Virus record (IMG/VR): IMGVR_UViG_3300027816_000055
Direction: 5' to 3' (one strand)
Length of the DNA: 64,000 bases
DNA from: a virus
This document shows, in pieces, positions 1-19,594 of this stretch; the first letter of the stretch is position 1; each line of letters starts with the position of its first letter. The translations under genes and the position numbers were made by a program. Below the pieces are notes generated by a model that did not search any database, was not told where the DNA came from, and saw nothing but the letters and a program-made list of their open reading frames with translations.

Positions 1-338
1 TTGATTGCATCACATGTGGCTTCTTTTGCAAATCGGATCGCATTTTTTACAGCTTCTTCTTTTGAAATTTCATATGCTCCCTGTGGCATGTCTCCGACAA
101 TAAATGTATTTGGAGCACCGCGACGAACTGCTTTAGCAAAACTAATCATTTCATCCATAGTTACTGGATTAGTTGTTTGATAACCCAATTCTACCATTCC
201 ACCAGAGTCTCCAACCAATATCATTTCGATACCAGCATTTTCAACTGCATTTGCAAATGGATAGCTATAGGCAGTAACCCATGTAATAGGTTCACCTGCT
301 TGTTTCATTTTGTTAAAATTAATAATTGATTTTTTCAT
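1..338 (-). CDS. panB: 3-methyl-2-oxobutanoate hydroxymethyltransferase (ketopantoate hydroxymethyltransferase), 5' part; runs off the left edge; absent from ORF track
   Basis: Manual translation from ATG at 338: MKKSIINFNKMKQAGEPITWVTAYSYPFANAVENAGIEMILVGDSGGMVELGYQTTNPVTMDEMISFAKAVRRGAPNTFIVGDMPQGAYEISKEEAVKNAIRF. Contains PanB motifs TAY, LVGDS, VTMDEM, VGDMP. ATG overlaps the TGA of the upstream gene (ATGA). Confidence 0.92.
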   Translation of the reverse strand, partial: MKKSIINFNKMKQAGEPITWVTAYSYPFANAVENAGIEMILVGDSGGMVELGYQTTNPVTMDEMISFAKAVRRGAPNTFIVGDMPQGAYEISKEEAVKNAIRFAKEATCDAI

Positions 339-1090
339 AAATATTTTTCAGCTTTTAGTTCTTCATCTGACAAAAACGGATACATATCGTCCAATCCACA
401 TTGTATTGATTGTCCTGTATTTTTATCTTTCTTAAGCATTAATGTAGGCACAATTTCTTGCTCTTCTTTACATATTACCTCGCATATAATGCCTGTTTTT
501 TTATTTAAGATATTTTTTAAATTTTTTTTCAATTCTTGATTTGAAGTAATTTTACTATACTCCATTTCATATGTTTCTGCAACATTTTTTAATTCAGGAA
601 ACCATAATCCGTGATTGCTATCAGTACCATATACACGCCCTTCATAAAACTTTTTCTGTGTGTTTTTGATGCTTAAATAACCGCTATTATTCCAGACAAA
701 TATTTTGATCGGCAAATTTAAATATTTAATTGTGGCTAATTCTTGTATATTGGTATTGAAACTTCCATCTCCAGTAATCACTACAACGTTTTTTGTAGGA
801 TCTGCTAACTTTACTCCGATAGATGCTGGTAATGCAAATCCCATATCTGCCTGTGCGCCAGATAATACAAATATCTGATTATCAATCATTTTTAAATTTT
901 GACTAGGCACATAAATTGCACTTCCCGCATCGGACACAATTGTATCAGACGCCGACATGACATCATTTAATGTTTCAATAAAGGTATACAAATTTATACC
1001 ATTTGTATCGTCTTTATAAGATTCTTCGTAAATAGGCCATTTATTTTTCCAATATTTACATTTTTCTATCCATTTTTCTTTATTTGTCAT
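335..1090 (-). CDS. ThDP-dependent enzyme, acetolactate-synthase-like, C-terminal (ThDP-binding) half
   Basis: GAQADMGFALPASIG, ITGDGSF...NIQELATI, and NNSGYLSI form the GDG-X(24-27)-NN ThDP motif. Confidence 0.9.
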   Translation of the reverse strand: MTNKEKWIEKCKYWKNKWPIYEESYKDDTNGINLYTFIETLNDVMSASDTIVSDAGSAIYVPSQNLKMIDNQIFVLSGAQADMGFALPASIGVKLADPTKNVVVITGDGSFNTNIQELATIKYLNLPIKIFVWNNSGYLSIKNTQKKFYEGRVYGTDSNHGLWFPELKNVAETYEMEYSKITSNQELKKNLKNILNKKTGIICEVICKEEQEIVPTLMLKKDKNTGQSIQCGLDDMYPFLSDEELKAEKYL

Positions 1091-2096
1091 AGTTTAAAAA
1101 ATAATTTAAATCGGCATTAATATACTTATCAATTTTTATTGTGTTCTTTCTGTGTTCGTTATCATCAATATCGACCATGATTTTATATGAATGTGGGGAA
1201 AATAATTTTTCATCATATCCAGTGTGAGAGCAATTAAGAGAGCATCCTAAAATAAGCAATAAATTACAATTTTGTATTGCAAAATTACCTGCTCGGCTGC
1301 CTTTAATACCGATTGTTCCTAAATGTAATGGATGTCTATGACCTAAAATATCAATTCCCAAATATGAAGTAACTGTAGGAATTTGATGCTTTTCTACGAA
1401 ACGTTTAAATAATTGTTTAGAATTGCTTAATGTTATACCATATCCTGCTAAAATAAGTGGACGATCATACGATTCAATTATTGGAAGTAAATTTTTTATG
1501 GTAATTGACGAGTTGTTCAATGTTGACTCTGGTATAAATGATTTGCATTGTGTTATGTCAATTTCCGCGTGTTGAATATCGCTCGGTATATCTAACCACA
1601 CTGGTCCCATACGTCCCGATAAAGCGATATGAATAGCTTTATCTAATTCGTATGGAACATCAGTTGCATTTTCAACCATTATTGCATATTTTGTCAATGA
1701 CTTGACTGTATCAATGATATTATGTTCTTGAATTCCATATTTTCTAATAGATACGTTTTTTTCTCTGTTAATAAATAAACTAGTTTGTGTTTTTTTAACA
1801 TTTCCAGATAAAAATAAAACGGGTAAGCTATCTTGCCATGCATCCAACAATGATGTAATACAATTGGTTCCACCACATCCGGTTGTAGGATTAACTACTG
1901 ATAATTTGTTTGTTACTTTACTCTCACCAACGGCAGCATGTCCTGCTCCTTGTTCATTATGAAAACAAATATAACTTATTTGTTTTTCTTTAATAAATCC
2001 GTCATTAAGCCCTGCTGCTCCACCACCCATTAATCCATATACGTATTTAATTCCAATTTTTGCCAAACGTTGTGCTATATAGTCTGATACTCTCAT
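1080..2096 (-). CDS. ThDP-dependent enzyme, acetolactate-synthase-like, N-terminal and central (FAD) domains
   Basis: VYGLMGG, FHNEQGAGHAAVG (catalytic Glu), TTGCGGTNCITSLLDAWQDSLPV, GRMGPVWLDIPSD, RAGNFAIQNCNLLLILG. Confidence 0.9.
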   Translation of the reverse strand: MRVSDYIAQRLAKIGIKYVYGLMGGGAAGLNDGFIKEKQISYICFHNEQGAGHAAVGESKVTNKLSVVNPTTGCGGTNCITSLLDAWQDSLPVLFLSGNVKKTQTSLFINREKNVSIRKYGIQEHNIIDTVKSLTKYAIMVENATDVPYELDKAIHIALSGRMGPVWLDIPSDIQHAEIDITQCKSFIPESTLNNSSITIKNLLPIIESYDRPLILAGYGITLSNSKQLFKRFVEKHQIPTVTSYLGIDILGHRHPLHLGTIGIKGSRAGNFAIQNCNLLLILGCSLNCSHTGYDEKLFSPHSYKIMVDIDDNEHRKNTIKIDKYINADLNYFLNYDK

Positions 2097-2105
2097 AAAT
2101 TATAA

Positions 2106-3065
2106 TTACCAAATAAAATTATTTCTATAATAAGATACAATATCTTTTATTTCTACATCAAAATTACATTTTGGTGTCCATCCTAAATTACGTAATTTAA
2201 AATCATTTAACGCGTATCTTACATCCTGACCTGCGCGATGAAAACAAAAATCGATGTATTCCTCTTTATAATTAGGTTGAAATTCTTGAAAATACGCAGT
2301 TATAATTTTTTCAACCGTTATTATATTAGATTGTTCAAATCCACCAGCAATATTATAAATTTCATTTTTTACACCAGCGTCTATGATTGTAATAATACCG
2401 TCTGCTGTATCTTTTGCATGTAACCAATTACGAATTGGTGTTCCATTATTATGCAAAGGAATTTTTCTATTAAGCTTTAAAAACTTACATGTCTTCGGAA
2501 TCAATTTTTCAACATATTGACCGATACCATAATTATTCGTAGGTCTTACAATAACATATGGAATTCCATATGTTCGTGCCCATGCTATTATTAATTGGTC
2601 AGCCGCTGCTTTTGTAGCACTATATGGATTGCTCGGTTTTAAAATATCTGTTTCAATATGTTCTCCATCAACAATATCTCCATATACTTCATCTGTGCTG
2701 AATTGAATTAATGTAGGAGTAATATGACCAGTACTTTTATAGTGCTTTAACAATTCGAGAATATTATATACTCCATCAATATTTGAATGAATGAAATCGT
2801 CGCTTTTACGTATTGAATTATCAACGTGCGTTTCTGCGGCAACATTAATAAAATAATCACAGTCAATTAGACGATCTATATTACAGATATCTTGTTTTTC
2901 AAAATGAAAACGGTCTGTTGATTCGAATTCTTTAATTAAATTTGGATCAGCTGCATATGTAATTTTATCAATTCCTTTTACATACCATCCTTTATTTAAA
3001 CATGCACGGGTTACATATGAACCGATAAATCCTAAACATCCTGTTATATAAACTATTTTAGACAT
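2106..3065 (-). CDS. rfbB: dTDP/NDP-glucose 4,6-dehydratase (RmlB-like extended SDR)
   Basis: ITGCLGFIGS, DKITYA, AAETHVDNSI, STDEVYG, NPYSATK, RAGQDVRYA. Start set at ATG 3065, which follows the upstream stop as TAA-T-ATG. Confidence 0.92.
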   Translation of the reverse strand: MSKIVYITGCLGFIGSYVTRACLNKGWYVKGIDKITYAADPNLIKEFESTDRFHFEKQDICNIDRLIDCDYFINVAAETHVDNSIRKSDDFIHSNIDGVYNILELLKHYKSTGHITPTLIQFSTDEVYGDIVDGEHIETDILKPSNPYSATKAAADQLIIAWARTYGIPYVIVRPTNNYGIGQYVEKLIPKTCKFLKLNRKIPLHNNGTPIRNWLHAKDTADGIITIIDAGVKNEIYNIAGGFEQSNIITVEKIITAYFQEFQPNYKEEYIDFCFHRAGQDVRYALNDFKLRNLGWTPKCNFDVEIKDIVSYYRNNFIW

Positions 3066-3066
3066 A

Positions 3067-4377
3067 TTATATTGTTTTAAAAAATTTTTCAATAATCGTT
3101 TGAATATACATAATTTGTTCAGACGATATTACTGGACTTGTTCCTAAAAAGAAACTATCCGTCGTGACTTTTCTAGCATTAGGATATTTGTTAATAACAT
3201 CCTGTTTATCCATAATTCCAGAATAAGCTGGTTGTAGCATAATATTACCCGCAAAATATGGGCGGGTTTGAATTTTGTTATCTTCCAAATAATTAATAAT
3301 ATCTTTTCTTTTAAAATTATTATTGTTTTTAATTGTCAATGGAAATGCAAACCAACTAGGATCTGCATGTTCTGTTGCTTTTGGTAGAATGAAAAACTCT
3401 TCGTATGGTTTGAATATATCAAACAATTGTTTAAAGTTTGATTTACGTCTAGCATGTATTTCCGGCAGCTTTTTAATTTGTTCTAAACCAATTGATGCTT
3501 GTAATTCAATTGGCTTTAAATTATATCCAATTTCGTCATACACATATTTGTGATCAAATATTTCATCTGGTAATTCTGGTAGCCAATTACTAAATCGATT
3601 TCCACAGCTTCCGTTTTTTAGTTTATTTGCTTTTAAGCCCACACAATAACATCCGCGACCCCATTCACGAAAACTACGTGTAACTATTTCTTGTATTTTT
3701 GTATTACATGCTACAAATCCACCTTCACCCATCGTCATGTGATGCGCTGGATAAAAACTACAACTAGCTAACTCACCGAAACTGCCAAGTGGCTTGTTAT
3801 TATATGTTGATCCAAGTGCATCGCAACAATCCTCTAACAAAATTAAATTATATTGTTTTATGATTTCCATCAATCGATTCATGTTCGGCGGATTACCTAA
3901 AACGTGTGCAAATGTTATAACTTTTGCGCCTTTTTTTGCTTGTTCTTCTACTTGATCAAGATTTAAATTTAATGTGTCCAAGTCAATATCAACAAATAAA
4001 GGTTCGAATCCAACTTGAAAAATTGGATTTAATGTTGTAGGAAACCCAGCAATTGGGGTAATTACTTTTGTTCCTTTTGGTAAATTGTATAATCTTTTTG
4101 ATGTCATTGCTAACATCATCAATAAATTAGAACTACTTCCACTATTTGTTAATATTCCATATTCTTTACCTACTAATAATGGAAATTTATTTTCAAATGT
4201 GATTGCATCTTGCCCTAATACTAACCATTCATTCAACAATGAATTAATTGCAGCAATATATTCTTTCTCGTCGAAAAATGGTCCTGCATATTGCACCCAA
4301 TCTTTACCAGCTTCCCATTTTTTAGATGCGTGTTTTTCATTAATATATTCTTTAATTTTATTTAAAATTTCTATCAT
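3067..4377 (-). CDS. rfbH: CDP-4-keto-6-deoxyglucose 3-dehydrase-like PLP/PMP enzyme (RfbH/DdhC family)
   Basis: SFYPAHHMTMGEGG with His in place of the aminotransferase Lys; SFREWGRGCYC...CGNRF Cys cluster; FDHKYVYDEIGYNLK. Start is ATG 4377 or 4383. Confidence 0.88.
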   Translation of the reverse strand: MIEILNKIKEYINEKHASKKWEAGKDWVQYAGPFFDEKEYIAAINSLLNEWLVLGQDAITFENKFPLLVGKEYGILTNSGSSSNLLMMLAMTSKRLYNLPKGTKVITPIAGFPTTLNPIFQVGFEPLFVDIDLDTLNLNLDQVEEQAKKGAKVITFAHVLGNPPNMNRLMEIIKQYNLILLEDCCDALGSTYNNKPLGSFGELASCSFYPAHHMTMGEGGFVACNTKIQEIVTRSFREWGRGCYCVGLKANKLKNGSCGNRFSNWLPELPDEIFDHKYVYDEIGYNLKPIELQASIGLEQIKKLPEIHARRKSNFKQLFDIFKPYEEFFILPKATEHADPSWFAFPLTIKNNNNFKRKDIINYLEDNKIQTRPYFAGNIMLQPAYSGIMDKQDVINKYPNARKVTTDSFFLGTSPVISSEQIMYIQTIIEKFFKTI

Positions 4378-4383
4378 TTCCAT

Positions 4384-4412
4384 AATATAATACGTTAGAT
4401 TCAATATGTCAA
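4384..4412 (-). promoter_or_regulatory. sigma70-type promoter TTGACA-17-TATATT, 6 nt upstream of ATG 4377
   Basis: Minus strand reads TTGACA tattgaatctaacgtat TATATT atggaa ATG. Confidence 0.75.
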
Positions 4413-4421
4413 TCTATAAAT

Positions 4422-5465
4422 TTATATCGTATTTTTTATATTTTCAATCATATATTCAATTTCATTTATTTTCCAAGGATAATTATTATCGTCTGTTTGT
4501 TTTTCACTTGATATAATCTCTCCGAAATCTTCAATTGTTACGAGATTTGATTTGCTTAATGAAGCAAATTCTTTACATTTTGGAGTAAGCCACCAATTCA
4601 TTTTTGGATGTTCTATCAAATAATGTGTTGTATGCTTACTTGAAAATAGAATACCGATCACGGATGCACTTGATTGTTGTACTATTGTTTTATATGATTT
4701 AAAAATTTGAATTTTTTGTGCCATATTAAAATCCATTAACTCAATAATATCATAATTGTTACGTTTAAAGCCATCGATAAGATCAAGTTCATTTATTAAT
4801 ATTCTATTATGATACCATCCACGTTTAATAGTATCCTGTCTTGAAATATACACAGATTTATTTAAATAATTTTCATTAATTGGAATATTATCTATAACCT
4901 TTCTCATCATTTTATAAATAATATTATATCCAAATGGTTGTGGAAAATTATAAAATGAATTTGGTACTATTAAATTTTTAAATTTATATCGTTTATCATG
5001 GTCGATAACATAAATATTAATATTTGGATAATACAATTGCATCCACTCTTTTATAAAAGTTGCGCGGCCTGTATTATGATATAACTCAGCGGGAATGTAT
5101 AATTTAATATTCGTCTGTTTTATCAATTCATCGTAATAATGACATTTACCAAAAAAACAAAAGAAAAAATGAATATAATTTAGTCCAGCAGGATCTTGTA
5201 ATAAAAACGACGGTTCATCAACTAACACGTCATAGGATTCATTACTATTAACAATATTGTTGTCATATAGTAATCTATGATCACCAATCATTTGTGTATG
5301 TTTGTCGATGCCACCTATTACTTTCTTGTGATTATGAAATACTTCTAAATTACAGTCCTCACCTCTCGGGTGCAAAATATAAATATTCTTATATTCAATG
5401 CAAAACTCACGGTTTTTGTTTATAGTTGATTCGGGAATATCGAAAAAAAGAATACGTGAACTCAT
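4422..5465 (-). CDS. glycosyltransferase, GT61/DUF563-like
   Basis: YISRQD...RILINE...MAQKIQIF...IVQQSSASVIGILFS resembles the GT61 C-terminal pattern. Confidence 0.65.
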   Translation of the reverse strand: MSSRILFFDIPESTINKNREFCIEYKNIYILHPRGEDCNLEVFHNHKKVIGGIDKHTQMIGDHRLLYDNNIVNSNESYDVLVDEPSFLLQDPAGLNYIHFFFCFFGKCHYYDELIKQTNIKLYIPAELYHNTGRATFIKEWMQLYYPNINIYVIDHDKRYKFKNLIVPNSFYNFPQPFGYNIIYKMMRKVIDNIPINENYLNKSVYISRQDTIKRGWYHNRILINELDLIDGFKRNNYDIIELMDFNMAQKIQIFKSYKTIVQQSSASVIGILFSSKHTTHYLIEHPKMNWWLTPKCKEFASLSKSNLVTIEDFGEIISSEKQTDDNNYPWKINEIEYMIENIKNTI

Positions 5466-7324
5466 ATTAAATAATGTATTAAATTGTAATAATCTTCACA
5501 CTTTGCATCATTATGCAGTGGTATTAATGTGAATAATAAACTCGCCGTCAATGCTTTCAAATGCTTTAATTGTTCTGTTCCATGCAACTCTACAAAACAC
5601 TTTTCAAAATAAGAAATTAATGGAGAACAATATGAAAAAGATATTGGTTTTGAATTTAAAATAAAATCATATCCAATTAGAGATTGATATATTTTTGCAT
5701 AATCATAAAAAGAATCGCCGTAAATTGTATATGTATTTCCTAACTTTCCGCGCATATCTATAAATTGTAAACTATTATTTTTTACAAATATATTTGAAAA
5801 TACACAATCTCCATGAATTAATGATAAATTACCTCCATTCATTTTTTCATAATTAAAAAGTTTTTCTTTAAGAGAATTGAAAACAATGTTTGAATTTTTA
5901 AATTTAGTGTAATTATAATTATCAAATCTGGATATCAGTTTATTGTAATAATTATCATAAATATTGTTGTTAAACTGATCTGGAACAATTGAGTGTAGTT
6001 GCTTTAGTGATTTGAATAACAAATCGATATGAGTGGTTGTAAGCTCTTTGTGAGCATACATTGTAGAAAACAATGTTCCATCAATCTTTTCAATTTCTAA
6101 TTCGTTTTCACCATTTGTTGAGATTAACTTTGGAAATAGATGTGAAACTATATTTGGTATATTTTTGTAATAATAAATTTCACCACTCAACGATTTTGTT
6201 GATGTTTTAACAATGCTATTTTCTTTAACTTGAATTTGATTATAAGAACGAGGAGTAACTGAATTAATGTAAAATCCGGTAGATTTTTCAAGATTTGCAC
6301 GGGCATTGATTGCTAAATCATCAATATAAAAATCTGCATGCGGCTTTCCAAAACATAATTCATCGTACTGTATGTTATATTTTTCTAGTGTATTAAAAGT
6401 AATAATTCCCACGTCCTTTAAAATTTTAGACACATTTCCACTATAAGTTCTCATTCGCCGTGCCGTGTAAATTATAATATAATGACCTTGGTTTTTCAAA
6501 TGATTAAGAAAGTCAATATTTTTTTGTATTGGCTCAACCGTTGTATAATCATCTGTTTTTTGAGGATATGTAACTAATGTATTATCCAAATCAAAACAAA
6601 AGCGTAATTGTTTTTGTGTAGAATTTTGGCTGCAAAAATCCATTACTTGTAATGGAGTGCCCAAACATACATAATTATTTTTTTCAATATATTTTCCGAC
6701 AACATATTGTTTATCTTCAATCATCTTTTGATATACATGTGAAATGTAAATTTCGTTCAATGTCTGATCACATTTCATTGCGTATGATTGAAATAATTTC
6801 GCATTTTTAAATACATAACAACCAATATTTGCGTTGTCTGAAATCTTTACTTTTTCTTTGATATCAATAATTTGATTTTCGTTTAGTTTAATATAACTGA
6901 ATAGTGGAGTTGGTGTCTTATCGATTGTATAATAAATTTCATTATTTGAAGAATCTCTATCAAATTTGTTGTTTTTGATAAATGAATCTCCATCATGAAT
7001 AATTATTTTTTCATCCAAAATATGGTCGGGTAGTTTAGACAATCCGTACAAAATTGTTTCCACAGGTCCAGAAGTTTGATACGGCAACTTGATGAAATTA
7101 AACTTTATATTTTTATATTCTTTTTGAAGAATGTCTTGAAAGTTATAATGATCTAAAATATAATTATATATAATAGTAACACAATCATCAGTTGAAATAT
7201 TTAACGAATCAATGACCCATGTAATGATTGGCTTTCCCAAGACATTTGTTAATATTTTTGGAAAATGGTAGTCTTCAGATTTGAATCTTTCTCCTTTTCC
7301 ACCTAACGGTATAACAATATTCAT
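5462..7324 (-). CDS. three-domain enzyme: nucleotidyltransferase + HAD phosphatase + APH/choline-kinase-like domain
   Basis: MNIVIPLGGKGERF (NTP transferase); FCFDLDNTL...TAR...GKPHADFYIDD (HAD); IHGDCVFSNI...FIDMRG (kinase). Start set at ATG 7324 (TAA-T-ATG). Confidence 0.85.
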   Translation of the reverse strand: MNIVIPLGGKGERFKSEDYHFPKILTNVLGKPIITWVIDSLNISTDDCVTIIYNYILDHYNFQDILQKEYKNIKFNFIKLPYQTSGPVETILYGLSKLPDHILDEKIIIHDGDSFIKNNKFDRDSSNNEIYYTIDKTPTPLFSYIKLNENQIIDIKEKVKISDNANIGCYVFKNAKLFQSYAMKCDQTLNEIYISHVYQKMIEDKQYVVGKYIEKNNYVCLGTPLQVMDFCSQNSTQKQLRFCFDLDNTLVTYPQKTDDYTTVEPIQKNIDFLNHLKNQGHYIIIYTARRMRTYSGNVSKILKDVGIITFNTLEKYNIQYDELCFGKPHADFYIDDLAINARANLEKSTGFYINSVTPRSYNQIQVKENSIVKTSTKSLSGEIYYYKNIPNIVSHLFPKLISTNGENELEIEKIDGTLFSTMYAHKELTTTHIDLLFKSLKQLHSIVPDQFNNNIYDNYYNKLISRFDNYNYTKFKNSNIVFNSLKEKLFNYEKMNGGNLSLIHGDCVFSNIFVKNNSLQFIDMRGKLGNTYTIYGDSFYDYAKIYQSLIGYDFILNSKPISFSYCSPLISYFEKCFVELHGTEQLKHLKALTASLLFTLIPLHNDAKCEDYYNLIHYLI

Positions 7325-7325
7325 A

Positions 7326-8000
7326 TTATAATTTAAATCCAAAATTTTCTTCTTGTGAAAAAATTGCATTATATTTCAAATTGGTCGCAATTTGTTTTTC
7401 AATAGTTTTATTGTGATGTAATGCAAATTCGTATTCATATGGCAAGTGGCTATATGTTTTTGCACCTTCAATTTTTTCATGCAATCTACGCTCCCATTTC
7501 ATATATGAAACATTTTTAAAAAGACGCCCTTGCGGATCTGGCCAATTAACAATCAATCTGTTTTCAAATGGAGTTAATCTCCAACCCCATTGTTTTGCAT
7601 TATCTGGATTTACACCTATAAAATCATTAATACGAGGAATCCAATATAAATCTATATCAGGATTTGTGTCTAATATAAGTTTGATGTTTTCCAATAAAAA
7701 TATAGATGGTAATTCATCAGCATCAATTTGGAATATGTATTTTCCTTTACACAATGATTTACCATAATTTTTATGTTCGCTATAGTTTTTATTTAGCGCA
7801 TGTTTATGTAACTGAAAAAAGCCGCCACCTGTATTTACTGCGTCTTGCAATATTTGAACAGTGGCGGCATCATCACTATAATCATCAAGTATTATACATT
7901 CGCCGTCGTCTTTGTATTTAAAAAGACGTTCCAATAAAGGTTTTATTTGCATACCTTCATTCTTGCATGTTACTAAATATGATACAAATGGTAATGACAT
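7326..8000 (-). CDS. glycosyltransferase family 2
   Basis: SYLVTCKNE, ILDDYSDD, YIFQIDADE, RLHEKIEG. Start set at ATG 8000. Confidence 0.85.
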   Translation of the reverse strand: MSLPFVSYLVTCKNEGMQIKPLLERLFKYKDDGECIILDDYSDDAATVQILQDAVNTGGGFFQLHKHALNKNYSEHKNYGKSLCKGKYIFQIDADELPSIFLLENIKLILDTNPDIDLYWIPRINDFIGVNPDNAKQWGWRLTPFENRLIVNWPDPQGRLFKNVSYMKWERRLHEKIEGAKTYSHLPYEYEFALHHNKTIEKQIATNLKYNAIFSQEENFGFKL

Positions 8001-8001
8001 A

Positions 8002-8556
8002 TTATGTATTAGTATATACCCAACAATATTCTTGACTATGTAGTTTGCTTCGGTTTTCGTAAAAAAACTCATTTACCGCCTGTTCTACCCCATAATGGCC
8101 ATCATAATAATCGTGTCCGGCAATAATTCCATTTTTCTTTAGTTTTGGGAACCAAGCATGTAAATCTTCTTTAACACACTCGTAATCATGACATGCATCG
8201 ATAAAAATGAAATCAAGACTTTCATTTTGAAACAGTTTAGATGCATTCACAGAATAATCTTTAATAATGTTAAGATTGTCTTTTAATTTCTCTTTAATTG
8301 GTTCGATATTTTTACAAAACAGATCGTATGACGGATACCCATTTGGATTATTAAGATCCACATCCGTCCATGTATCAATAAGATTTAGTTTAATATTTTT
8401 GTTTCGATTAATAATTTCCACACCAATAAAGCATGCGCTTTGCCCACAATCACATCCAATTTCTACAAATTCCGCATTATCAAATCGTGTTACCATTTCA
8501 AAATATAATGCAGGAAACGTAAATGCACCTCTTACATTTTTATAATAATGTTCCAT
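8002..8556 (-). CDS. class I SAM-dependent methyltransferase (Methyltransf_24-like)
   Basis: FVEIGCDCGQS, DFIFIDACHDYECVKED, GIIAGHDY. Confidence 0.85.
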   Translation of the reverse strand: MEHYYKNVRGAFTFPALYFEMVTRFDNAEFVEIGCDCGQSACFIGVEIINRNKNIKLNLIDTWTDVDLNNPNGYPSYDLFCKNIEPIKEKLKDNLNIIKDYSVNASKLFQNESLDFIFIDACHDYECVKEDLHAWFPKLKKNGIIAGHDYYDGHYGVEQAVNEFFYENRSKLHSQEYCWVYTNT

Positions 8557-8561
8557 AGTAT

Positions 8562-9863
8562 TTATTTATTCAATTTAGGTAATTTAAGTTTTGGTAATAC
8601 AATTTTCTTTTCAATTGCAAATTCTGGAACATATTTGTCTAAATATGCATGTAAAATTTTATCAGTTGCTTCCATACTAAATCTTTCCATATTTTCAATG
8701 CGTAGCTTTTCCGCATTCTCTTTGATAGATGGCGCCGGACTGTAAAATATTGTCTTGAATCGTTCTTCAGCAAGACCGTAAGCAACAGAGAACCAACTAC
8801 TTTCTTTAATAAGCCATTGATTAGAAGATGCTGGATCAACCTGCTTTATGGTTCCTTGCAATAACTGTGCATACTTCGGGTTCAAGAAATCAAGATGACC
8901 ACTCCAATTACTTGCCAATATTGGTTTGCCGCTCAAACTTGCAAGTAATAATGGATGTCCATATCCTTCACCGTGTGTAAAACTAACATGTGCTTTAACT
9001 TTTTCATGATTAAACAATGCATTCATTTCTACATCATTAAGTTCACCATGCAAAAGATATACATTTGGTAAATCACCACCAACTTCTTTTTTAATAGCGG
9101 CAATACGTGCCAAACATGCATCTCTATCAGCGATAGAAAAATTAACACCGCTTGTTTTTAAGATCAAACAAGGACGTTCACCTTTTCTGTCTTTGAAAGT
9201 ATTACAGAAGGACTTGATTAAATTACCAATGTCTTTACGATCATTATATAATCCATTTGAGCTTGTCCATTGACCAACAAACAAAAATGCAAAAGTTTCA
9301 GGAATATTGCTTAATGCGGCTTCTACGGTTGCAACTTTTTCATCTGTTTTCTTAAATACTTTGATGTCTGCACCCCAAGGGGTAACTTCCATAGGCTTAT
9401 TTACTACTAATGGTTCATTACGACCATCTGGCAAAGTCTTGACAAAGTTTGCTTTTTGAAATACTTCTTTTGAAAATGTACTAGTTACAAAGTTAACATT
9501 CATTTTATTTAATCCTTCAATCCACTCACCCGGTGGGATCGTTGTTTCAATACCGGCAGTCATACCAATATTGTATTTAGCAGGAGTTTGAAATTCATTT
9601 GGAATTGTCATTTGAATGAATACTTCTGGTTGTTTTTGTAAAGGGGATCGTAAAATACGATTTCCTAATTCTATTGCTTCATGATCATTCGGATCAATAT
9701 CCGCAACGTTTAGTTTACGCGGAGTTCCACCCCATGGAGTCGGCACAACAAGTAGATCAAATTTGTTATATCTTAACAAACTTTTACCAACTGCCATTGC
9801 CCATTCACCGTAACCACTGCGAGTAAAAATAGGACTTTGAAATACACAAACTGGTTTGCTCAT
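8562..9863 (-). CDS. GT-B glycosyltransferase (GT4-like)
   Basis: TRSGYG, MTAGIETT, FLFVGQW...DRKDIG, FTHGEGYGHPLLLA. Confidence 0.8.
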   Translation of the reverse strand: MSKPVCVFQSPIFTRSGYGEWAMAVGKSLLRYNKFDLLVVPTPWGGTPRKLNVADIDPNDHEAIELGNRILRSPLQKQPEVFIQMTIPNEFQTPAKYNIGMTAGIETTIPPGEWIEGLNKMNVNFVTSTFSKEVFQKANFVKTLPDGRNEPLVVNKPMEVTPWGADIKVFKKTDEKVATVEAALSNIPETFAFLFVGQWTSSNGLYNDRKDIGNLIKSFCNTFKDRKGERPCLILKTSGVNFSIADRDACLARIAAIKKEVGGDLPNVYLLHGELNDVEMNALFNHEKVKAHVSFTHGEGYGHPLLLASLSGKPILASNWSGHLDFLNPKYAQLLQGTIKQVDPASSNQWLIKESSWFSVAYGLAEERFKTIFYSPAPSIKENAEKLRIENMERFSMEATDKILHAYLDKYVPEFAIEKKIVLPKLKLPKLNK

Positions 9864-10573
9864 AGATTATTTTCTCTTTCTTTCATTAAATCACTATACT
9901 TCTTTTCTGGAGTATACACAGGATTTTTTTTGTAATTTTTAATCATATCAACCAATGTTTCATCGGGAACAATTGGAGTAGATGTTACATCAGTGCTGCC
10001 AAAACCACCTTCGCCACGTTGTGTTTTATCTAGTGCATCCACCAAATAAAACTCAGCATGTTCAACTTTGGTAATTTTCAATTGACAAATTTTGTCACCT
10101 TTCTTGTAGATCTTATCAAGATTAGGTTTTCCTGCAACATATTGATACAAAGGCGCACCATCATTTGCAAGTTTAGTGTTAATCAGATAATCTTCTGGTT
10201 GCCAAATATATTTGAAACGTACAAGAATTTCGCCACGATAATCCGCATCAATTAATCCAATACCATTTGCAAGTACAAGATTGTATTTGCTAACACTACT
10301 ACGAGGCATAGCCAATACATCGTAATCAATATTTAATGGACTTGATGTACCTCCAGTCCATACGTTATCTTTTTGAACAGCAATTCGAAGATTAGTTTTG
10401 TACTGAATGTAATCTATACTTTCATATACATTTTTTGATTCTCCGTGTAGTTTACCTACTATTTCAGGATCACTAGTTGCAACAATATCATAACCAGTAG
10501 ATCGTTCGGTTGCCGCGTCTGGCAACGCGGCAACATTATTATATGTTTCGTTTTTTAATACTTCAATTTTCAT
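9860..10573 (-). CDS. dut: trimeric dUTPase with internal insertion and C-terminal extension
   Basis: STGYDI, MPRSS, GLIDADYRGEI, KGDKICQ, RGEGGFGST (motifs I-V). Confidence 0.93.
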   Translation of the reverse strand: MKIEVLKNETYNNVAALPDAATERSTGYDIVATSDPEIVGKLHGESKNVYESIDYIQYKTNLRIAVQKDNVWTGGTSSPLNIDYDVLAMPRSSVSKYNLVLANGIGLIDADYRGEILVRFKYIWQPEDYLINTKLANDGAPLYQYVAGKPNLDKIYKKGDKICQLKITKVEHAEFYLVDALDKTQRGEGGFGSTDVTSTPIVPDETLVDMIKNYKKNPVYTPEKKYSDLMKERENNL

Positions 10574-14559: not shown

Positions 14560-17091
14560 ATGTATCAAAATATATTCGTAGATAAAAAAACAAACACTGT
14601 TCATCTATGGGATGATGAAGGTGGTTATCAAAATATACCTTTTCAAAACTATGCATTTCGTAAGCGTCCCGGTGGACGTTATCGTAGTATTTATGGTGAC
14701 GAACTAGAACGAGTCACATTTTTTAATCCTAGAGATCCATCACTTTTTGGCTCGGATATTCCAATTGAAACCAAAATTTTAATTGACTTGTACGAGTCCA
14801 GTGATGATGTATCCAAAGGACATCGTATTGGTTGCATCGATATTGAAACGGACAGCGAAGGTGGGTTTCCAACCGTTGAAAAGGGCGATAAAGAAATCAC
14901 TGCAATTGCATTATATGATTATGTAGGCGGCAAATATATTGCATTTCTACTTGATAAAGACAATCGGGTAAAAACCAATTCTATTGATGGTATAGAAATT
15001 ATTTCTAGTGACAACGAATATAATCTATTGAGCAAGTTCCTAAACAAATGGAATGAACTCGGATTTACCATTGTTACAGGTTGGAATATTGATGGATTTG
15101 ATATGCCTTATCTGTATAATCGTATTACGAATGTAATGGGAAAAGAGCATTCAAAGCGATTGAGTCCCATTGATATTTGTTATATCAACGATTGGAGCAA
15201 ACGGTTGGTGATAGCGGGTATTAGTTGTTTGGATTATCTTGAATTGTTCAAGAAATATTCAGACAAGCGTGAACCTTCGTATGCACTTGATCCAATTGGC
15301 CGCAAATTTGTCGGTATTGGTAAGGTGGAATTTGAAGGAAGTCTTGATCATTTGTATAAGACTGATTTGGAAAAGTATATTCGTTACAATATCAACGACG
15401 TAAAAATTGTTGTTGAGATTGATAAACTCAAACAATATATTGAATTGGCCCGTAAAATTTGTCACACAGGTCATGTTCCATATGAAAACTTTGCATGGAG
15501 CAGTCGATACCTAGAAGGTGCAATATTGACATATTTGCGCCGTAATGGTGGTCTTATTGCTCCAAATAAACCAATGGAGGGCAAGGAAGAATATGAGCAG
15601 CGTTTGGAAGCTAACGAAGAAGGATTTGAAGGTGCATATGTGAAAGATCCAATTCCGGGTCGGTACGAATATGTATTTGACTTGGACTTGACCAGTATGT
15701 ATCCAAAAATCATGATTAGTCTCAATATTAGTCCAGAAACGAAAGTTGGTAAGATTGATAGTTGGGATGTAGAAGCGTATCTTTCCGGCAAACTTGAAAA
15801 AGTATTTATTGCGGGCAATCCATATACTATGGATGAATTTCATAAATTGTTGACTCAGCAAAACTTGAGTGTTTCGAGCAACGGTTGCTTGTACAAATTG
15901 GATAAGAAAGGTGTTATTCCATCGATTCTATCCAAGTGGTTTGATGAACGTGTTGAGATGCGTAAATTGGAAAAGAAGTATGCTAAAGAAAACAACAAAG
16001 AAATGTATCAATTTTATAATCAACGTCAGTTGGTACAAAAGATTATGTTGAACAGTGCTTATGGTGTGCTTGGATTGCCAATTTTTAGATTTTACGATAA
16101 AGACAATGCAGAAGCTGTTACGAAGAGTGGTGTAACCATTATTCAAACGGCAGGTAAAGCAATCAATCAATATTATCAGGATATTCTAAAAGATGACGGT
16201 GATTATGTCATCTACACTGATACAGACAGTTGCTTTGCAAGCGCATTGCCTATTATTGAACGAACCATGCCAGAAATTGATGTTAACAACGAAGAGTTAA
16301 TGATCAAAACAACATTGAAAATTTGTTCAGAGGTACAGACGTTTGTTAATAAAATCTTTGATGTAATGGCACAACGAGCCTTTCATTTGAAACATCATGA
16401 ATTTGAAGCAAAACAAGAAGTTATTGCCAAGAGTTCATTTTGGCTGGCTAAGAAACGTTATACACAGTTCATTATTAATAAAAATGGTGTTGAATGTGAT
16501 GAACTAGAAATCAAAGGTATCGACGTAGTTCGTACAAGTTTTCCAATTCGATTCAGAAAATTTATGAATGACTTTTTGATTGACATTCTTAAAAAGACTG
16601 ACATGAAGATCATCAATCAGAAAATTTATGAGTTTGAATTGACATTGAACGACGTGCCGATCATTGAACTTGCAAAAAACACAAGTATCAAGTTTGTAAG
16701 TATGGATAAAGGTAAAAATTATGATCCTAATAATCGTGTACCTTTTAATTTTATATTGGGTACTCCTGCTCAAGTAAAAGCTGGTCTTGCTTACAATGAT
16801 TTGCTTGAGTTTTGGAAACTTGACACTAAATATCCAAAACTGATGCATGGACAAAAAATCAAGTGGGTGTATTTAATTGAGAATGACTATGGTATTGATG
16901 CATTGGCTATGAAAGCTGACGGCACCGATCCTAAAGAAATTCTTGATTTTATTGAGAAATACATTGATCGTAAATTGATGTATCAAAAAGAACTCAAAAG
17001 CAAATTAGAAGACTTTTACAACGTATTGAAGTGGAATTATCCAGATCAATACAGCATGAACACAATGAATATTATATTTGATTGTGAGTAA
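14560..17091 (+). CDS. polB: family B DNA polymerase (T4 gp43-like) with 3'-5' exonuclease
   Basis: CIDIET, GWNIDGFD, YNINDV (Exo I-III); DLDLTSMYP, KIMLNSAYG, YTDTDS, KKRY. Confidence 0.97.
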   Translation: MYQNIFVDKKTNTVHLWDDEGGYQNIPFQNYAFRKRPGGRYRSIYGDELERVTFFNPRDPSLFGSDIPIETKILIDLYESSDDVSKGHRIGCIDIETDSEGGFPTVEKGDKEITAIALYDYVGGKYIAFLLDKDNRVKTNSIDGIEIISSDNEYNLLSKFLNKWNELGFTIVTGWNIDGFDMPYLYNRITNVMGKEHSKRLSPIDICYINDWSKRLVIAGISCLDYLELFKKYSDKREPSYALDPIGRKFVGIGKVEFEGSLDHLYKTDLEKYIRYNINDVKIVVEIDKLKQYIELARKICHTGHVPYENFAWSSRYLEGAILTYLRRNGGLIAPNKPMEGKEEYEQRLEANEEGFEGAYVKDPIPGRYEYVFDLDLTSMYPKIMISLNISPETKVGKIDSWDVEAYLSGKLEKVFIAGNPYTMDEFHKLLTQQNLSVSSNGCLYKLDKKGVIPSILSKWFDERVEMRKLEKKYAKENNKEMYQFYNQRQLVQKIMLNSAYGVLGLPIFRFYDKDNAEAVTKSGVTIIQTAGKAINQYYQDILKDDGDYVIYTDTDSCFASALPIIERTMPEIDVNNEELMIKTTLKICSEVQTFVNKIFDVMAQRAFHLKHHEFEAKQEVIAKSSFWLAKKRYTQFIINKNGVECDELEIKGIDVVRTSFPIRFRKFMNDFLIDILKKTDMKIINQKIYEFELTLNDVPIIELAKNTSIKFVSMDKGKNYDPNNRVPFNFILGTPAQVKAGLAYNDLLEFWKLDTKYPKLMHGQKIKWVYLIENDYGIDALAMKADGTDPKEILDFIEKYIDRKLMYQKELKSKLEDFYNVLKWNYPDQYSMNTMNIIFDCE

Positions 17092-17097
17092 ATAAAC

Positions 17098-17126
17098 TGG
17101 ACAACCTACAACTGCTCGGCTATAGT
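17098..17126 (+). promoter_or_regulatory. sigma70-type promoter TGGACA-17-TATAGT for the clamp/clamp-loader genes
   Basis: Reads TGGACA acctacaactgctcggc TATAGT. Confidence 0.6.
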
Positions 17127-17160
17127 GTGGCGTAACTTATAACCGAGCAGTTTTTCTTTT
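17110..17160 (+). terminator. intrinsic-terminator-like hairpin with T-tract, overlapping the promoter
   Basis: aactgctcggctata (17110-17124) pairs with tataaccgagcagtt (17138-17152) at 14 of 15 positions, followed by tttctttt and then ATG 17161. Confidence 0.65.
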
Positions 17161-17931
17161 ATGATTAAATCTACATTAGAATCGATGATTAAGAAGTATT
17201 ATCTTGCAAATTTTATGGAAACTTCAATTTGGAAGGTACTGAATGATAAAAAGCAGCTACGAATGGCAGCGTGTACTCCAAATTATGTACTGAGCGTAGT
17301 AGTTGAACTAAATAATTTTGAAGAAATTCCAACAACCGAGTTTGCAGTAAATGATACCACCAAGCTATTGAAGATGTTGAATGCACTGGATGCGGATATC
17401 AAATTGTCCGTCAAACAAGACAACAATGGCAAAATTTACAATATTGTAGTAAATTCTGGTAATATTGAGATGGAATATGTAACCGCTGATATTAATGTAT
17501 TGCGAGCAAATGAAGTGGTAAAGACCATCAAGAAGGTCAATGAACCTCCGTTTGAAGTAGAAATCGTGCTTGATAGAGACTTTATTGACACTTATATTGC
17601 TAGTACAACTGCATTGTCCGATAGCGAGAATGTAGTATTTCAAATGAACAAGGATAATAAACTTGAAATGGTATTCGGCCATATTCAAGGTGCAAACAAG
17701 TCATTAAACACTTCAAAAATTAAATATTTGCCTAAAACTGCAAATGGGAAAGATACACTTCCATCGTCACTTGGTTTTAGTTCTGAGTATTTGAAGCAAA
17801 TTTTGGTAGCAAATAAAGATGCTACCGATACAATTCTCAAATTGGGTGTTACTAAGCCTATGGCAACTGCTCAATTTACAAGCGGCGACATCATTGCAAC
17901 CTATCACGTAACCGGTCTTACTGTTAAATAA
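17161..17931 (+). CDS. DNA polymerase sliding clamp (T4 gp45-like)
   Basis: 256 aa, lies between polB and the clamp loader; EFAVNDTTKLLKML...EYVTAD pattern. Confidence 0.75.
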   Translation: MIKSTLESMIKKYYLANFMETSIWKVLNDKKQLRMAACTPNYVLSVVVELNNFEEIPTTEFAVNDTTKLLKMLNALDADIKLSVKQDNNGKIYNIVVNSGNIEMEYVTADINVLRANEVVKTIKKVNEPPFEVEIVLDRDFIDTYIASTTALSDSENVVFQMNKDNKLEMVFGHIQGANKSLNTSKIKYLPKTANGKDTLPSSLGFSSEYLKQILVANKDATDTILKLGVTKPMATAQFTSGDIIATYHVTGLTVK

Positions 17932-17934
17932 TAT

Positions 17935-18861
17935 ATGACTACACAAGAACATCATACTATCTGGCCTGAAAAATATCGTCCTTCATCTTTGGATGAATAT
18001 GTAAGTAATCCAAATTTGATTGCTACAATTCGTAAATTTATTGATTCAAAGAACATCCCACATCTGTTATTTCATGGCACTGCGGGAACCGGCAAGACAA
18101 CCTTGGCAAAGCTGATTATCAAGAATGTTGAGTGCGATGCAATGTATATTAACGCATCGGACGAAAACAATGTTGATAACGTTCGTACAAAAATTAAAGA
18201 TTTTGCCTCAAATGTTGGATTTTCTGAATTGAAGATCATTATTTTGGACGAAGCAGATTATCTCACACACAATTCACAGGCGGCATTACGTAACATTATG
18301 GAGACGTATGCATTGACTACACGATTCATTCTAACCTGTAACTATATTGAAAAGATTAGTGAGCCATTGTATTCACGTTGTCAGTGTTTTGAAATTAGTC
18401 CTCTGCAAAAGAAAGATGTGGCAATCCATCTAAAAAATGTGTTGCATGCCGAAAACATACAGCACACAATGGAAGATTTGGGTTATATTGTTAACACATA
18501 TTATCCTGATATTCGTAAAGTGTTAAATTTTGCACAACAGAGCGTGTTGAATGGTGAGATTAAAATCGCAGAATTAAATTCGTCTTCATACAATACTAAA
18601 AATCAGCTTGTTGAGATTTTGAAGTCGGAATCCAACGCTGCCACCGGATTCAATAAAATTAGACAGTTGATTGCAGATAGTGGTATTCGTCACTATGAAG
18701 AATTGTATCAAACTTTATTTGATCGTGTTGATGATTATGCACCAAAACAGCAATCGGCAGCGATTTTGGTTGTGGCAGAGTATTTGTATCAAAGCAGCAT
18801 GATTGTGAATAAAGAAATTGCCTTCATGGCGTGTATTGCAAAACTTCTAGAAATACTATGA
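17935..18861 (+). CDS. clamp loader ATPase (T4 gp44 / RFC small-subunit-like)
   Basis: WPEKYRP, LLFHGTAGTGKTT, INASD, ILDEADYLT, SRC motif. Confidence 0.95.
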   Translation: MTTQEHHTIWPEKYRPSSLDEYVSNPNLIATIRKFIDSKNIPHLLFHGTAGTGKTTLAKLIIKNVECDAMYINASDENNVDNVRTKIKDFASNVGFSELKIIILDEADYLTHNSQAALRNIMETYALTTRFILTCNYIEKISEPLYSRCQCFEISPLQKKDVAIHLKNVLHAENIQHTMEDLGYIVNTYYPDIRKVLNFAQQSVLNGEIKIAELNSSSYNTKNQLVEILKSESNAATGFNKIRQLIADSGIRHYEELYQTLFDRVDDYAPKQQSAAILVVAEYLYQSSMIVNKEIAFMACIAKLLEIL

Positions 18862-19058
18862 AAATGGATAAAAAACTAACTGAGATAGTATCGTATTTTT
18901 CAAAATACGCATGGTATGATAATGCATACGCTACCACATATAAAAATGAATATGTAATCATCGTAAAAAAATATCCTTATAGCGACGATCACTTATTCAG
19001 TGAATACGAAAAAAATAAAAAAGTTAGAATTAGAACACACGTATTGGGAGGAAAATGA
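18858..19058 (+). CDS. hypothetical protein
   Basis: ATGA-coupled to both neighbours. Confidence 0.5.
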   Translation: MKMDKKLTEIVSYFSKYAWYDNAYATTYKNEYVIIVKKYPYSDDHLFSEYEKNKKVRIRTHVLGGK

Positions 19059-19594
19059 ATATTTTAAATAAAACCAAGGTTTATCTTGCAGGCAATCTTG
19101 AAAATGCAAATTCAAGCACTAATACATGGAGAGATTATGTTAAAAATGAATTAAATTCGTTAAATATAACATTTCTTTCTCCGTTAGAGCGAATGTTTAC
19201 AGATGATATGCCTGAAGATGAAAGTAATCAGCGCACAGTAAAAATGCTACGTGCAAATGGGGAATTTGATGTCTTGCATGAGCATATGAAGAAAATAATT
19301 CGTAAAGATTTGCGATTGGTTGATGTATCGGATTTTTTCATCTTTAATTTTGATATAAAAAATCCTACATATGGTACAATGCATGAACTTGTATTGGCAA
19401 GTCAGCAACGCAAACCTGTTTTTATTAGTGTAGGTGATAAACGCCAGTGTCCACTATGGATTATGGGATTATTTAACCACAAGTACATTTACAACAATGT
19501 AGAAGAAATAGTTGATGTATTGAAAAGAATTGATAGTGGTGAAATTGAAATTAATAACAGTCGTTGGAGATTATTGAAGCCTGAATTTCGATAA
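19055..19594 (+). CDS. nucleoside 2-deoxyribosyltransferase-like / nucleotide N-glycosidase-like protein
   Basis: KVYLAG...WRD...FLSP...DLRLVDVSD...TYGTMHELVLA...KPVF. Confidence 0.75.
   Translation: MNILNKTKVYLAGNLENANSSTNTWRDYVKNELNSLNITFLSPLERMFTDDMPEDESNQRTVKMLRANGEFDVLHEHMKKIIRKDLRLVDVSDFFIFNFDIKNPTYGTMHELVLASQQRKPVFISVGDKRQCPLWIMGLFNHKYIYNNVEEIVDVLKRIDSGEIEINNSRWRLLKPEFR

Follow-up and report, generated by a model that had tools for sequence, protein, structure and literature searches.

A phage-borne gene cassette proposed to build a carbon-branched 3,6-dideoxyhexose with a two-piece YerE-like enzyme and a PanB paralogue

A cassette of five minus-strand genes lies at the left end of a 64,000-nt stretch of viral DNA (IMGVR_UViG_3300027816_000055), which we call the window and in whose numbering all positions are given. 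The genes encode a sugar 3-dehydrase, a sugar 4,6-dehydratase, the two halves of a thiamine diphosphate (ThDP)-dependent carboligase and the beginning of a PanB-like protein. We propose, with confidence somewhat above even, that the cassette is a phage pathway to a carbon-branched 3,6-dideoxyhexose, resembling those that make erwiniose and caryophyllose for bacterial lipopolysaccharide (LPS), in which PanB acts before the branching step. The identities of the genes, their catalytic motifs, their conserved linkage and the status of PanB as a paralogue were observed directly and support this proposal. A branched 3,6-dideoxysugar pathway had already been suggested by a sequence-only reading of this DNA, and the suggestion is upheld by the linkage of 3-dehydrase, 4,6-dehydratase and YerE-like ThDP genes across viral loci. 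What we propose as new is an erwiniose-type pathway, carried by a phage, in which a tetrahydrofolate (THF)-dependent PanB paralogue takes the role of the aldolase and the ThDP enzyme is split.

Cassette genes and the split ThDP enzyme

The identities of the five open reading frames (ORFs), which occupy positions 1-4404, were confirmed by ORF reading and profile searches. The first gene (longest ORF 3067..4404, minus strand, with a likely ATG start at 4377) encodes an E1/RfbH/DdhC-type 3-dehydrase of nucleoside diphosphate (NDP)-4-keto-6-deoxyhexoses that depends on pyridoxamine 5'-phosphate (PMP). It scored 467.7 bits against NF011936 (cut-off 423) and 349 bits against the Yersinia E1 enzyme (PDB 3bcx), has His in place of the Schiff-base Lys (FYPAHHM), and retains the four-Cys [2Fe-2S] motif intact (EDCC...GRGCYC...GSC). 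The second gene (2106..3092, minus strand) encodes an NDP-hexose 4,6-dehydratase, which is RmlB-like and not of the CDP-glucose type, with 294.8 bits for TIGR01181 versus 67.7 bits for the CDP-glucose dehydratase model TIGR02622; its top PDB matches are all dTDP-glucose 4,6-dehydratases, the best being 2hun at 229 bits. The N-terminal piece of a YerE-like ThDP carboligase (1080..2096, minus strand) contains the PYR and middle domains (PF02776, TPP_enzyme_N; PF00205, TPP_enzyme_M), and the C-terminal piece (335..1090, minus strand) contains the PP domain (PF02775, TPP_enzyme_C). The last gene (3..338, minus strand; PF02548) encodes residues 1-112 of a long-form PanB paralogue.

As had been noted from the sequence, the five minus-strand genes are tightly coupled, with ORFs that overlap or leave only short gaps. 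The ThDP halves share 11 nt (ATGACAAATAA), the ThDP C-half and PanB share 4 nt where the PanB start meets the ThDP-C stop (ATGA), and the gap between RmlB and the ThDP N-half is 9 nt. The claim that the five genes stand under one promoter, on the other hand, is not established. A sigma-70-like match (TTGACA-17-TATATT, 11 of 12 positions; 4384..4412, minus strand) lies a short gap before RfbH, but its promoter function is unproven because such sites were not enriched over shuffled sequence (105 matches versus 93.5 +/- 8.8). Moreover, the same-strand array extends upstream to ~13.4 kb without a terminator-like site between, and the five genes are the 3' end of this longer glycan gene array. The arrangement is not a matter of chance, since both the set of RfbH, RmlB and split ThDP genes and the pairing of PanB with ThDP genes recur across viral contigs; the former set occurs together in 18 of the 19 viral contigs with a ThDP N-half, where the contig extends far enough.

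Whether the ThDP enzyme belongs with YerE or with IlvB was judged by PDB score rankings. The N-half ranked the YerE-like enzyme JanthE first (8rph, 179 bits) and PpYerE second (5ahk, 166 bits), ahead of E. coli IlvB (6lpi, 141 bits), and the C-half likewise ranked JanthE first, with 128.8 bits versus 85.8 bits for the runner-up, an acetolactate synthase (ALS). Against the biosynthetic ALS model TIGR00118, the halves gave 191.9 and 126.7 bits, together 319 bits versus a cut-off of 538.35. The catalytic Glu is found in the FHNEQ motif of the N-half and the ThDP motif GDG...NN in the C-half (GDGSF...VWNNSGY); the PYR/middle/PP architecture is complete, spread over two polypeptides. While sequence scores alone are suggestive of a YerE-like identity, the assignment was decided by gene context, because the ThDP genes are linked to 3-dehydratase and 4,6-dehydratase genes: in the window and ~40 viral loci, they stand with genes for an NDP-hexose 4,6-dehydratase and a 3-dehydratase and, in relatives, for a side-chain reductase. 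Among the window ORFs scanned, no ilvN, ilvC or ilvD domain turned up. As such, the earlier suggestion that the ALS-like enzyme is YerE-like is supported by the top rank of JanthE for both halves, by scores far below the ALS cut-off and by the sugar-gene context.

When viral contigs were scanned with the ThDP N-half, 19 loci were retrieved. RfbH and a two-piece ThDP enzyme were present in all of them except L019, the most distant; an RmlB-like dehydratase was present wherever the contig extends far enough, and a short-chain dehydrogenase/reductase (SDR) follows the C-half in most of those read. The break falls in the linker that joins the middle domain to the PP domain, and the C-halves all start at an ATG of their own. 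In a tree of 58 ThDP enzymes, the split arose once, in an entirely viral clade of 23 members (support 100) that comprises the window enzyme (335-2096), L001-L018, L021-L023 and L027, and the other relatives, viral and cellular, are fused. Judging from these sequences, the split is a real two-subunit form, and sequencing error is excluded as its cause. A programmed frameshift that fuses the halves was also considered and rejected, given that the overlaps vary among relatives (4, 11 and 14 nt) and that every C-half has its own ATG.

Among the cassettes without PanB, nine (L002-L006 and L008-L011) carry a class-I aminotransferase gene directly before the ThDP genes (for example, L003:8845-10014). 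The best NCBIfam models for this aminotransferase are GntC and aspartate aminotransferase, all under cut-off, and the enzyme may offer another way to provide a functionalised 2-oxoacid donor, as transamination is the other named route to such acids (PMC9306805). It is only 23% identical to the bacterial class-I aminotransferase that adjoins long-form PanB, and we claim no orthology between them. In L003-L006, the region 15057-18229 encodes a PfkB kinase, a Zn-alcohol dehydrogenase and a second ThDP protein (a fusion of E1_dh and transketolase-pyrimidine domains, 400 aa), which could be a second branching or ketol-transfer system.

Long-form PanB

The PanB fragment of the window matched PF02548 with 136.9 bits over model positions 2-111 and is 60-81% identical to the PanB proteins of 19 viral contigs; in two scans, close relatives (49-81% identical) were found in 23 viral contigs. 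In all 23, as in the window, a ThDP gene lies beside PanB or within two genes of it. The two are direct neighbours in most contigs, one gene apart in L039 and L121, and two genes apart in L030. The partner ThDP enzymes are 26-69% identical to that of the window, and the linkage holds even at 26-35% identity. The usual order is ThDP, PanB, SDR, with PanB directly upstream of ThDP in L035 and L038 and two genes upstream in L030. The SDR (~260 aa), comparable to YerF and ErwF, follows either PanB or the ThDP C-half, the former in L021-L027, L033-34, L119, L121 and L127. None of the 19 loci that were retrieved with the ThDP N-half contains PanB. In one 'Pacearchaeota' metagenome-assembled genome (MAG) locus (L086, JBBACR010000014.1), the ThDP enzyme is 97% identical to that of viral L035 and PanB is sister to that of L035; L086 probably stems from a phage and was binned with an archaeal genome. 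The panB gene of Microcystis phage MaAM05 (L020; MW495066.1, 254-273 kb) was set aside as uninformative, as it sits with panC, sufBCDS and pxpA in a bacterial-looking stretch.

Full-length relatives of the window fragment have 298-354 aa, with an insert of ~40 residues and a conserved C-terminal tail. In an alignment with E. coli ketopantoate hydroxymethyltransferase (KPHMT), the catalytic and metal residues are all kept in the long form (D45, S46, D84, K112, E114, H136 and E181). The window fragment covers only three of these, as its D44, S45 and D83, and it carries every N-terminal signature residue of the long form (W20, E33, GDSGG, TTNPV, GAPNTF, GDMPQ and YE). Several substitutions are invariant in 69 long-form members and absent from the canonical copies compared, namely Gly in GDS-G (canonical L/A), Gln in DMP-Q (canonical copies have a conserved F), E90, L213, at the position of E. 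coli I212, and I215. Two variants of E. coli KPHMT have been engineered and used to take other 2-oxoacid substrates, and I212A is one of them (PMC7611260). In the PanB tree, the long form is one clade (support 99) apart from the canonical PanB proteins of the same genomes, and eight of the ten genomes examined encode it in addition to a canonical PanB.

Two signature peptides, searched against 185,579 species genomes, returned 60 loci from very diverse phyla. A ThDP gene directly adjoins long-form PanB in 21 of these 60 cellular loci, mostly with SDR, DegT and glycosyltransferase genes. Among the remaining loci, O-acetylhomoserine sulfhydrylase is found in five, with MetX in three of those five; homoserine dehydrogenase and a class-I aminotransferase are found in two, and cysteine synthase is also a neighbour. 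The sugar-free bacterial loci with homoserine dehydrogenase, class-I aminotransferase, MetX and O-acetylhomoserine sulfhydrylase (MetY) genes are L050, L053, L079, L088 and L089. Such neighbours hint that PanB acts on a small molecule in free form, close to the keto acid of homoserine. On the PanB tree, members with and without a ThDP link are intermixed, with at least nine changes of state, and all of the long-form family probably share a single reaction, put to use in different settings. The genes panC, panD and panE were never next to long-form PanB in the loci read.

Two further observations concern cellular loci. In eight of them (L040, L042, L046-L049, L059 and L097), a very conserved protein of ~420 aa with the motif KISVF.G.DNP is coupled to long-form PanB. 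It has no Pfam or NCBIfam match; its AlphaFold2 model (pLDDT 77) is a TIM-barrel, and a fold search with this model gave only weak matches of class II aldolase/NAL type, with TM-scores of ~0.34. In L098 (8001-8803, a Terriglobia MAG), long-form PanB is in two frames (residues 1-110 and the rest) with an adjoining ThDP gene, reflecting a frameshift or an assembly error.

That PanB belongs to the sugar pathway, as the sequence-only reading had it, agrees with its position near a ThDP gene in every one of the viral contigs, with its separate paralogue clade and with the lack of panC, panE, ilvC and ilvD among the window ORFs scanned. The alternative raised at the same time was auxiliary pantothenate metabolism; in the form weighed here, the ThDP enzyme would be an ordinary ALS and PanB would boost host pantothenate and CoA, neither having to do with the sugar genes. 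The names of the matching Pfam and NCBIfam models point this way, and in one ocean virome the viral 'pantoate transferase', the most abundant vitamin-related auxiliary gene, was read as a CoA boost (PMC8940887). However, the ThDP halves fall far below the ALS cut-off, the ThDP genes are strictly linked to 3-dehydratase and 4,6-dehydratase genes, and the PanB of the cassette is a ThDP-linked paralogue and not the housekeeping enzyme, without the partners expected of valine or pantothenate synthesis among the window ORFs scanned. We therefore consider auxiliary metabolism scarcely credible here.

Proposed pathway

In the pathway that we propose, an NDP-hexose would be made, probably by the nucleotidyltransferase-HAD fusion encoded upstream of the cassette, the RmlB-like enzyme would convert it into an NDP-4-keto-6-deoxyhexose, and E1/RfbH, with PMP and its [2Fe-2S] cluster, would take off the C3 oxygen. 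In parallel, long-form PanB would place a hydroxymethyl group, taken from 5,10-methylene-THF, on a free 2-oxoacid and yield a gamma-hydroxy-2-oxoacid; we favour the conversion of pyruvate to 4-hydroxy-2-oxobutanoate, and that of ketoisovalerate to ketopantoate is possible. The two-piece YerE-like enzyme would then decarboxylate this donor and add the acyl-anion equivalent to the C4 ketone of the sugar, the short SDR encoded directly after PanB in relatives would reduce the branch ketone, and the phage glycosyltransferases and methyltransferases would then use the sugar. From the genes and their linkage we infer every chemical step, the order of PanB and the ThDP enzyme, the donor, the nucleotide and the glycan target.

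The acceptor of the branch is suggested by the DegT-family neighbours in PanB clusters, almost all of which have His for Lys, whether they are E1-like and carry the Cys motif or ColD-like and lack it. Considering that these are 3-dehydratases of E1 or ColD type, the acceptor would be a 4-keto-3,6-dideoxy sugar in every type of cluster. The same observation bears on the idea, raised in the earlier reading, that the joint product of ThDP, PanB and SDR is a free hydroxy-acid or acyloin, with which the sugar is decorated as an O- or N-acyl group in place of a C-branch. Acylated rare sugars are common in O-antigens, which speaks for such a decoration, but the partner DegT proteins are dehydratases and not aminotransferases, so that no amino group would be made to acylate, and no acyl-activating enzyme, carrier protein or acyltransferase was found with the module in the loci read. 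We judge an acyl decoration to be very unlikely.

The closest tested precedent for PanB acting first is erwiniose synthesis in Pectobacterium (PMC9306805). There, the aldolase ErwI makes 4-hydroxy-2-oxopentanoate, the YerE-like ErwE moves the decarboxylated acyl unit onto CDP-4-keto-3,6-dideoxyglucose, and ErwF reduces the branch; ErwE takes 4-hydroxy-2-oxobutanoate, -pentanoate and -hexanoate and refuses pyruvate, and the order in which the branch is made first and the aldol reaction follows was tested and rejected by the authors (PMC9306805). Furthermore, the PanB and ThDP trees disagree, in that one PanB clade (support 99) pairs with ThDP enzymes that are only ~33% identical to each other, which fits a diffusible intermediate between the two.

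Several observations weigh against our proposal. No E3 (DdhD/RfbI/AscD) and no ferredoxin-reductase-type domain was found among the ~50 window ORFs scanned, and for this reason we presume that the electrons for E1 would come from host ferredoxin or flavodoxin reductases. The ThDP C-half scores PpYerE below several true ALS enzymes. The rest of PanB and the next gene lie past the window edge and are deduced from relatives, and the link to homoserine genes rests on only ~5 loci. The usual gene order of ThDP, PanB and SDR, found in most loci, suits PanB after branching equally well. Lastly, the window ThDP enzyme is closest to that of L001 (70% identity, support 96), a locus without PanB; either a change of donor needed little change of enzyme, or the donor is the same.

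The last two points fit an alternative that had been put forward from the sequence, in which the YerE-like enzyme would first add an acetyl branch from pyruvate and PanB would then hydroxymethylate the methyl ketone of the sugar-bound branch, whose alpha-hydroxy ketone could chelate Mg2+ like a 2-oxoacid. Yet in the one analogue that has been tested, the helper enzyme comes before ErwE, which refuses pyruvate (PMC9306805); loci without sugar genes contain the same PanB orthologues; and PanB lies upstream of ThDP in L030, L035, L038 and many bacterial loci. Nor is any PanB known to act on an NDP-sugar. As such, hydroxymethylation of the sugar-bound branch, while conceivable, seems unlikely, and the making of a free donor by PanB is favoured because of the Erw precedent, the intact 2-oxoacid and Mg2+ site, the sugar-free loci of orthologues, and the disagreement between the PanB and ThDP trees.

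Within the PanB-first pathway, the substrate of PanB is the next point. The conversion of pyruvate to 4-hydroxy-2-oxobutanoate is our favoured guess because of the homoserine and methionine neighbours and the polar changes in the pocket. Pseudomonas putida PanB, together with a formaldehyde source, is reported to have partially rescued a homoserine auxotroph (bioRxiv 10.1101/2025.02.17.638773). If pyruvate is the substrate, both orders of PanB would yield the same 4-C-(3-hydroxypropanoyl) branch, reduced to 1,3-dihydroxypropyl. The branches described for such sugars have two, four, six or seven carbons (PMC9306805), so that a C3 branch would be a new one.

Alternatively, PanB may be canonical in its chemistry and act on alpha-ketoisovalerate, so that ketopantoate is the ThDP donor and the branch is a bulky 3-hydroxy-2,2-dimethyl-propanoyl group instead of a C3 unit. 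The full-length relative L021 passes TIGR00222 (291 bits versus a cut-off of 207.55), the catalytic residues are all kept, and MyGE-type enzymes take branched donors (PMC9306805). Against this, the long form carries invariant substitutions in the pocket and close to the metal ligands, all absent from canonical copies and including L at the I212 position, the genomes retain a canonical PanB too, and long-form PanB in sugar-free loci adjoins homoserine and methionine genes rather than those for valine or pantothenate. We regard a ketopantoate donor as quite improbable.

Extending the preferred pyruvate reaction beyond phages, we tentatively suggest, as a possibility that we hold at well below even, that long-form PanB is no ketopantoate enzyme but a natural methylene-THF:pyruvate hydroxymethyltransferase. 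Given its neighbours homoserine dehydrogenase, MetX, MetY and a class-I aminotransferase, it would feed or drain the homoserine/methionine node in bacteria. In phages, and in part of the bacteria, its product would become, by way of a YerE-like enzyme, the C3 side chain of a 4-C-(1,3-dihydroxypropyl)-3,6-dideoxyhexose that has not been described before. To our knowledge, methylene-THF:pyruvate hydroxymethyl transfer is so far known only from engineered 'homoserine cycle' pathways.

Phage setting and comparison with known systems

The genes upstream of the cassette continue the glycan array on the minus strand. Directly upstream lies a gene for a GT61-family glycosyltransferase (4422..5465; PF04577, E = 5e-10), and the order of GT61 followed by the cassette is also present in viral contig L024. 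The next gene (5462..7369, 635 aa) encodes a sugar-1-phosphate nucleotidyltransferase (PF00483; PDB 4evw) fused to a HAD-type phosphatase (TIGR01689; PDB 1xpj) and ~280 unassigned C-terminal residues, relatives of which are present in L024, L013 and L014. A GT2 glycosyltransferase (PF00535), a Methyltransf_24 methyltransferase (PF13578) and a GT1-like protein (weak PF00534) follow within 7326..9863, where the array continues.

The window also encodes a gp43-type family-B polymerase (phrog_262, E = 4e-173), SbcCD-like gp46/47 proteins and baseplate wedge proteins, which, on their sequences, mark the replicon as a T4-like phage. Its nearest isolate by polymerase is Microcystis phage Mel-JY01, with 44% identity, and comparison at the DNA level with GenBank phages gave only short gene-level matches. 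In total, the window has at least 12 glycosyltransferase genes and five methyltransferase genes, a very heavy load for glycosylation, and this suggests that the glycan made by the phage is complex. The glycosyltransferases at 4422-31321 comprise GT61, two GT2, five of GT1/GT4 type, GT25, GT6 and GT8, and a PF11397 GlcNAc-transferase (61117-62052) lies in a stretch of structural genes, ~5.4 kb from a baseplate wedge gene. The methyltransferases are two Methyltransf_24, one Methyltransf_23, one of FkbM type and a fifth at 8002-8556. The scanned window ORFs include no Wzx, Wzy or export genes. A reasonable guess is that the phage makes a methylated glycan that is placed on proteins, perhaps on the virion. 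One of the GT1/GT4-type enzymes is fused to a GH130-like domain (19646-21700). A 237-aa protein (9860-10573) has only the C-terminal part of the dUTPase fold, and the gene for a nucleoside 2-deoxyribosyltransferase-like protein (19055-19594) lies amid the glycan genes.

If the cassette makes what we propose, large T4-like phages would make their own rare branched deoxysugars. The viral panB and ThDP genes of such cassettes are probably misread as vitamin and amino-acid genes; if they are glycan genes, both the CoA-boost reading and the label 'acetolactate synthase' on phage genes would be wrong. For enzymology, the cassette would offer a naturally split YerE-like enzyme, a THF-dependent partner that forms the donor, and a predicted new sugar for the YerE/ErwE toolbox of tertiary alcohols. 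Full-text literature searches returned no paper that links PanB with YerE-type enzymes or branched sugars, within a coverage that did not extend to the in-silico survey of Krug et al. 2024 (>200 YerE-like clusters).

Compared with known systems, the cassette is closest to clusters of the 'unifying scheme' for acyl-branched sugars, namely those for erwiniose (Pectobacterium atrosepticum, with the ErwI/ErwJ aldolase-dehydrogenase, ErwE and ErwF), caryophyllose and gastriose (Steitz et al. 2022, PMC9306805). Like them, it has genes for an NDP-4-keto-3,6-dideoxyhexose, a YerE-like ThDP enzyme that adjoins a C-C-forming enzyme able, as we propose, to yield a gamma-hydroxy-2-oxoacid, and, in relatives, an adjacent reductase. 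In contrast with erwiniose, the helper enzyme is a methylene-THF-dependent PanB paralogue and not a pyruvate aldolase, so that the added unit would be C1 (hydroxymethyl). The phage cassette further differs in its two-gene ThDP enzyme, its RmlB-like 4,6-dehydratase and its encoding by a phage, and the predicted C3 or dimethyl-C5 branch is undescribed.

With yersiniose A (Yersinia pseudotuberculosis DdhA-D, YerE and YerF), the cassette shares an E1-type 3-dehydrase with the His and Fe-S motif, an ALS-like, flavoprotein-type ThDP enzyme and, in relatives, a side-chain reductase, and PanB-less phage relatives such as L007 and L012-L018 resemble plain yersiniose-type cassettes. Unlike yersiniose A, the phage cassette has PanB after the ThDP genes (in relatives, between them and the reductase), a dehydratase unlike the CDP-glucose type and a ThDP enzyme in two pieces, and no DdhD/E3 was found among the window ORFs scanned. 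The domain order of the ThDP enzyme is the same as in JanthE (8rph), a YerE-like aldehyde-ketone carboligase (PMC12188165, PMC12247030), and PpYerE (5ahk), whereas the similarity to them is low (129-179 bits), both of these are single chains, and JanthE has CDG where the phage enzyme has GDG. Finally, long-form PanB shares the fold family, metal ligands and catalytic residues of PanB/KPHMT from E. coli (1M3U) and M. tuberculosis (1OY0), in contrast with which it has the ~40-residue insert, the C-terminal tail and the invariant pocket substitutions, and forms a separate clade.

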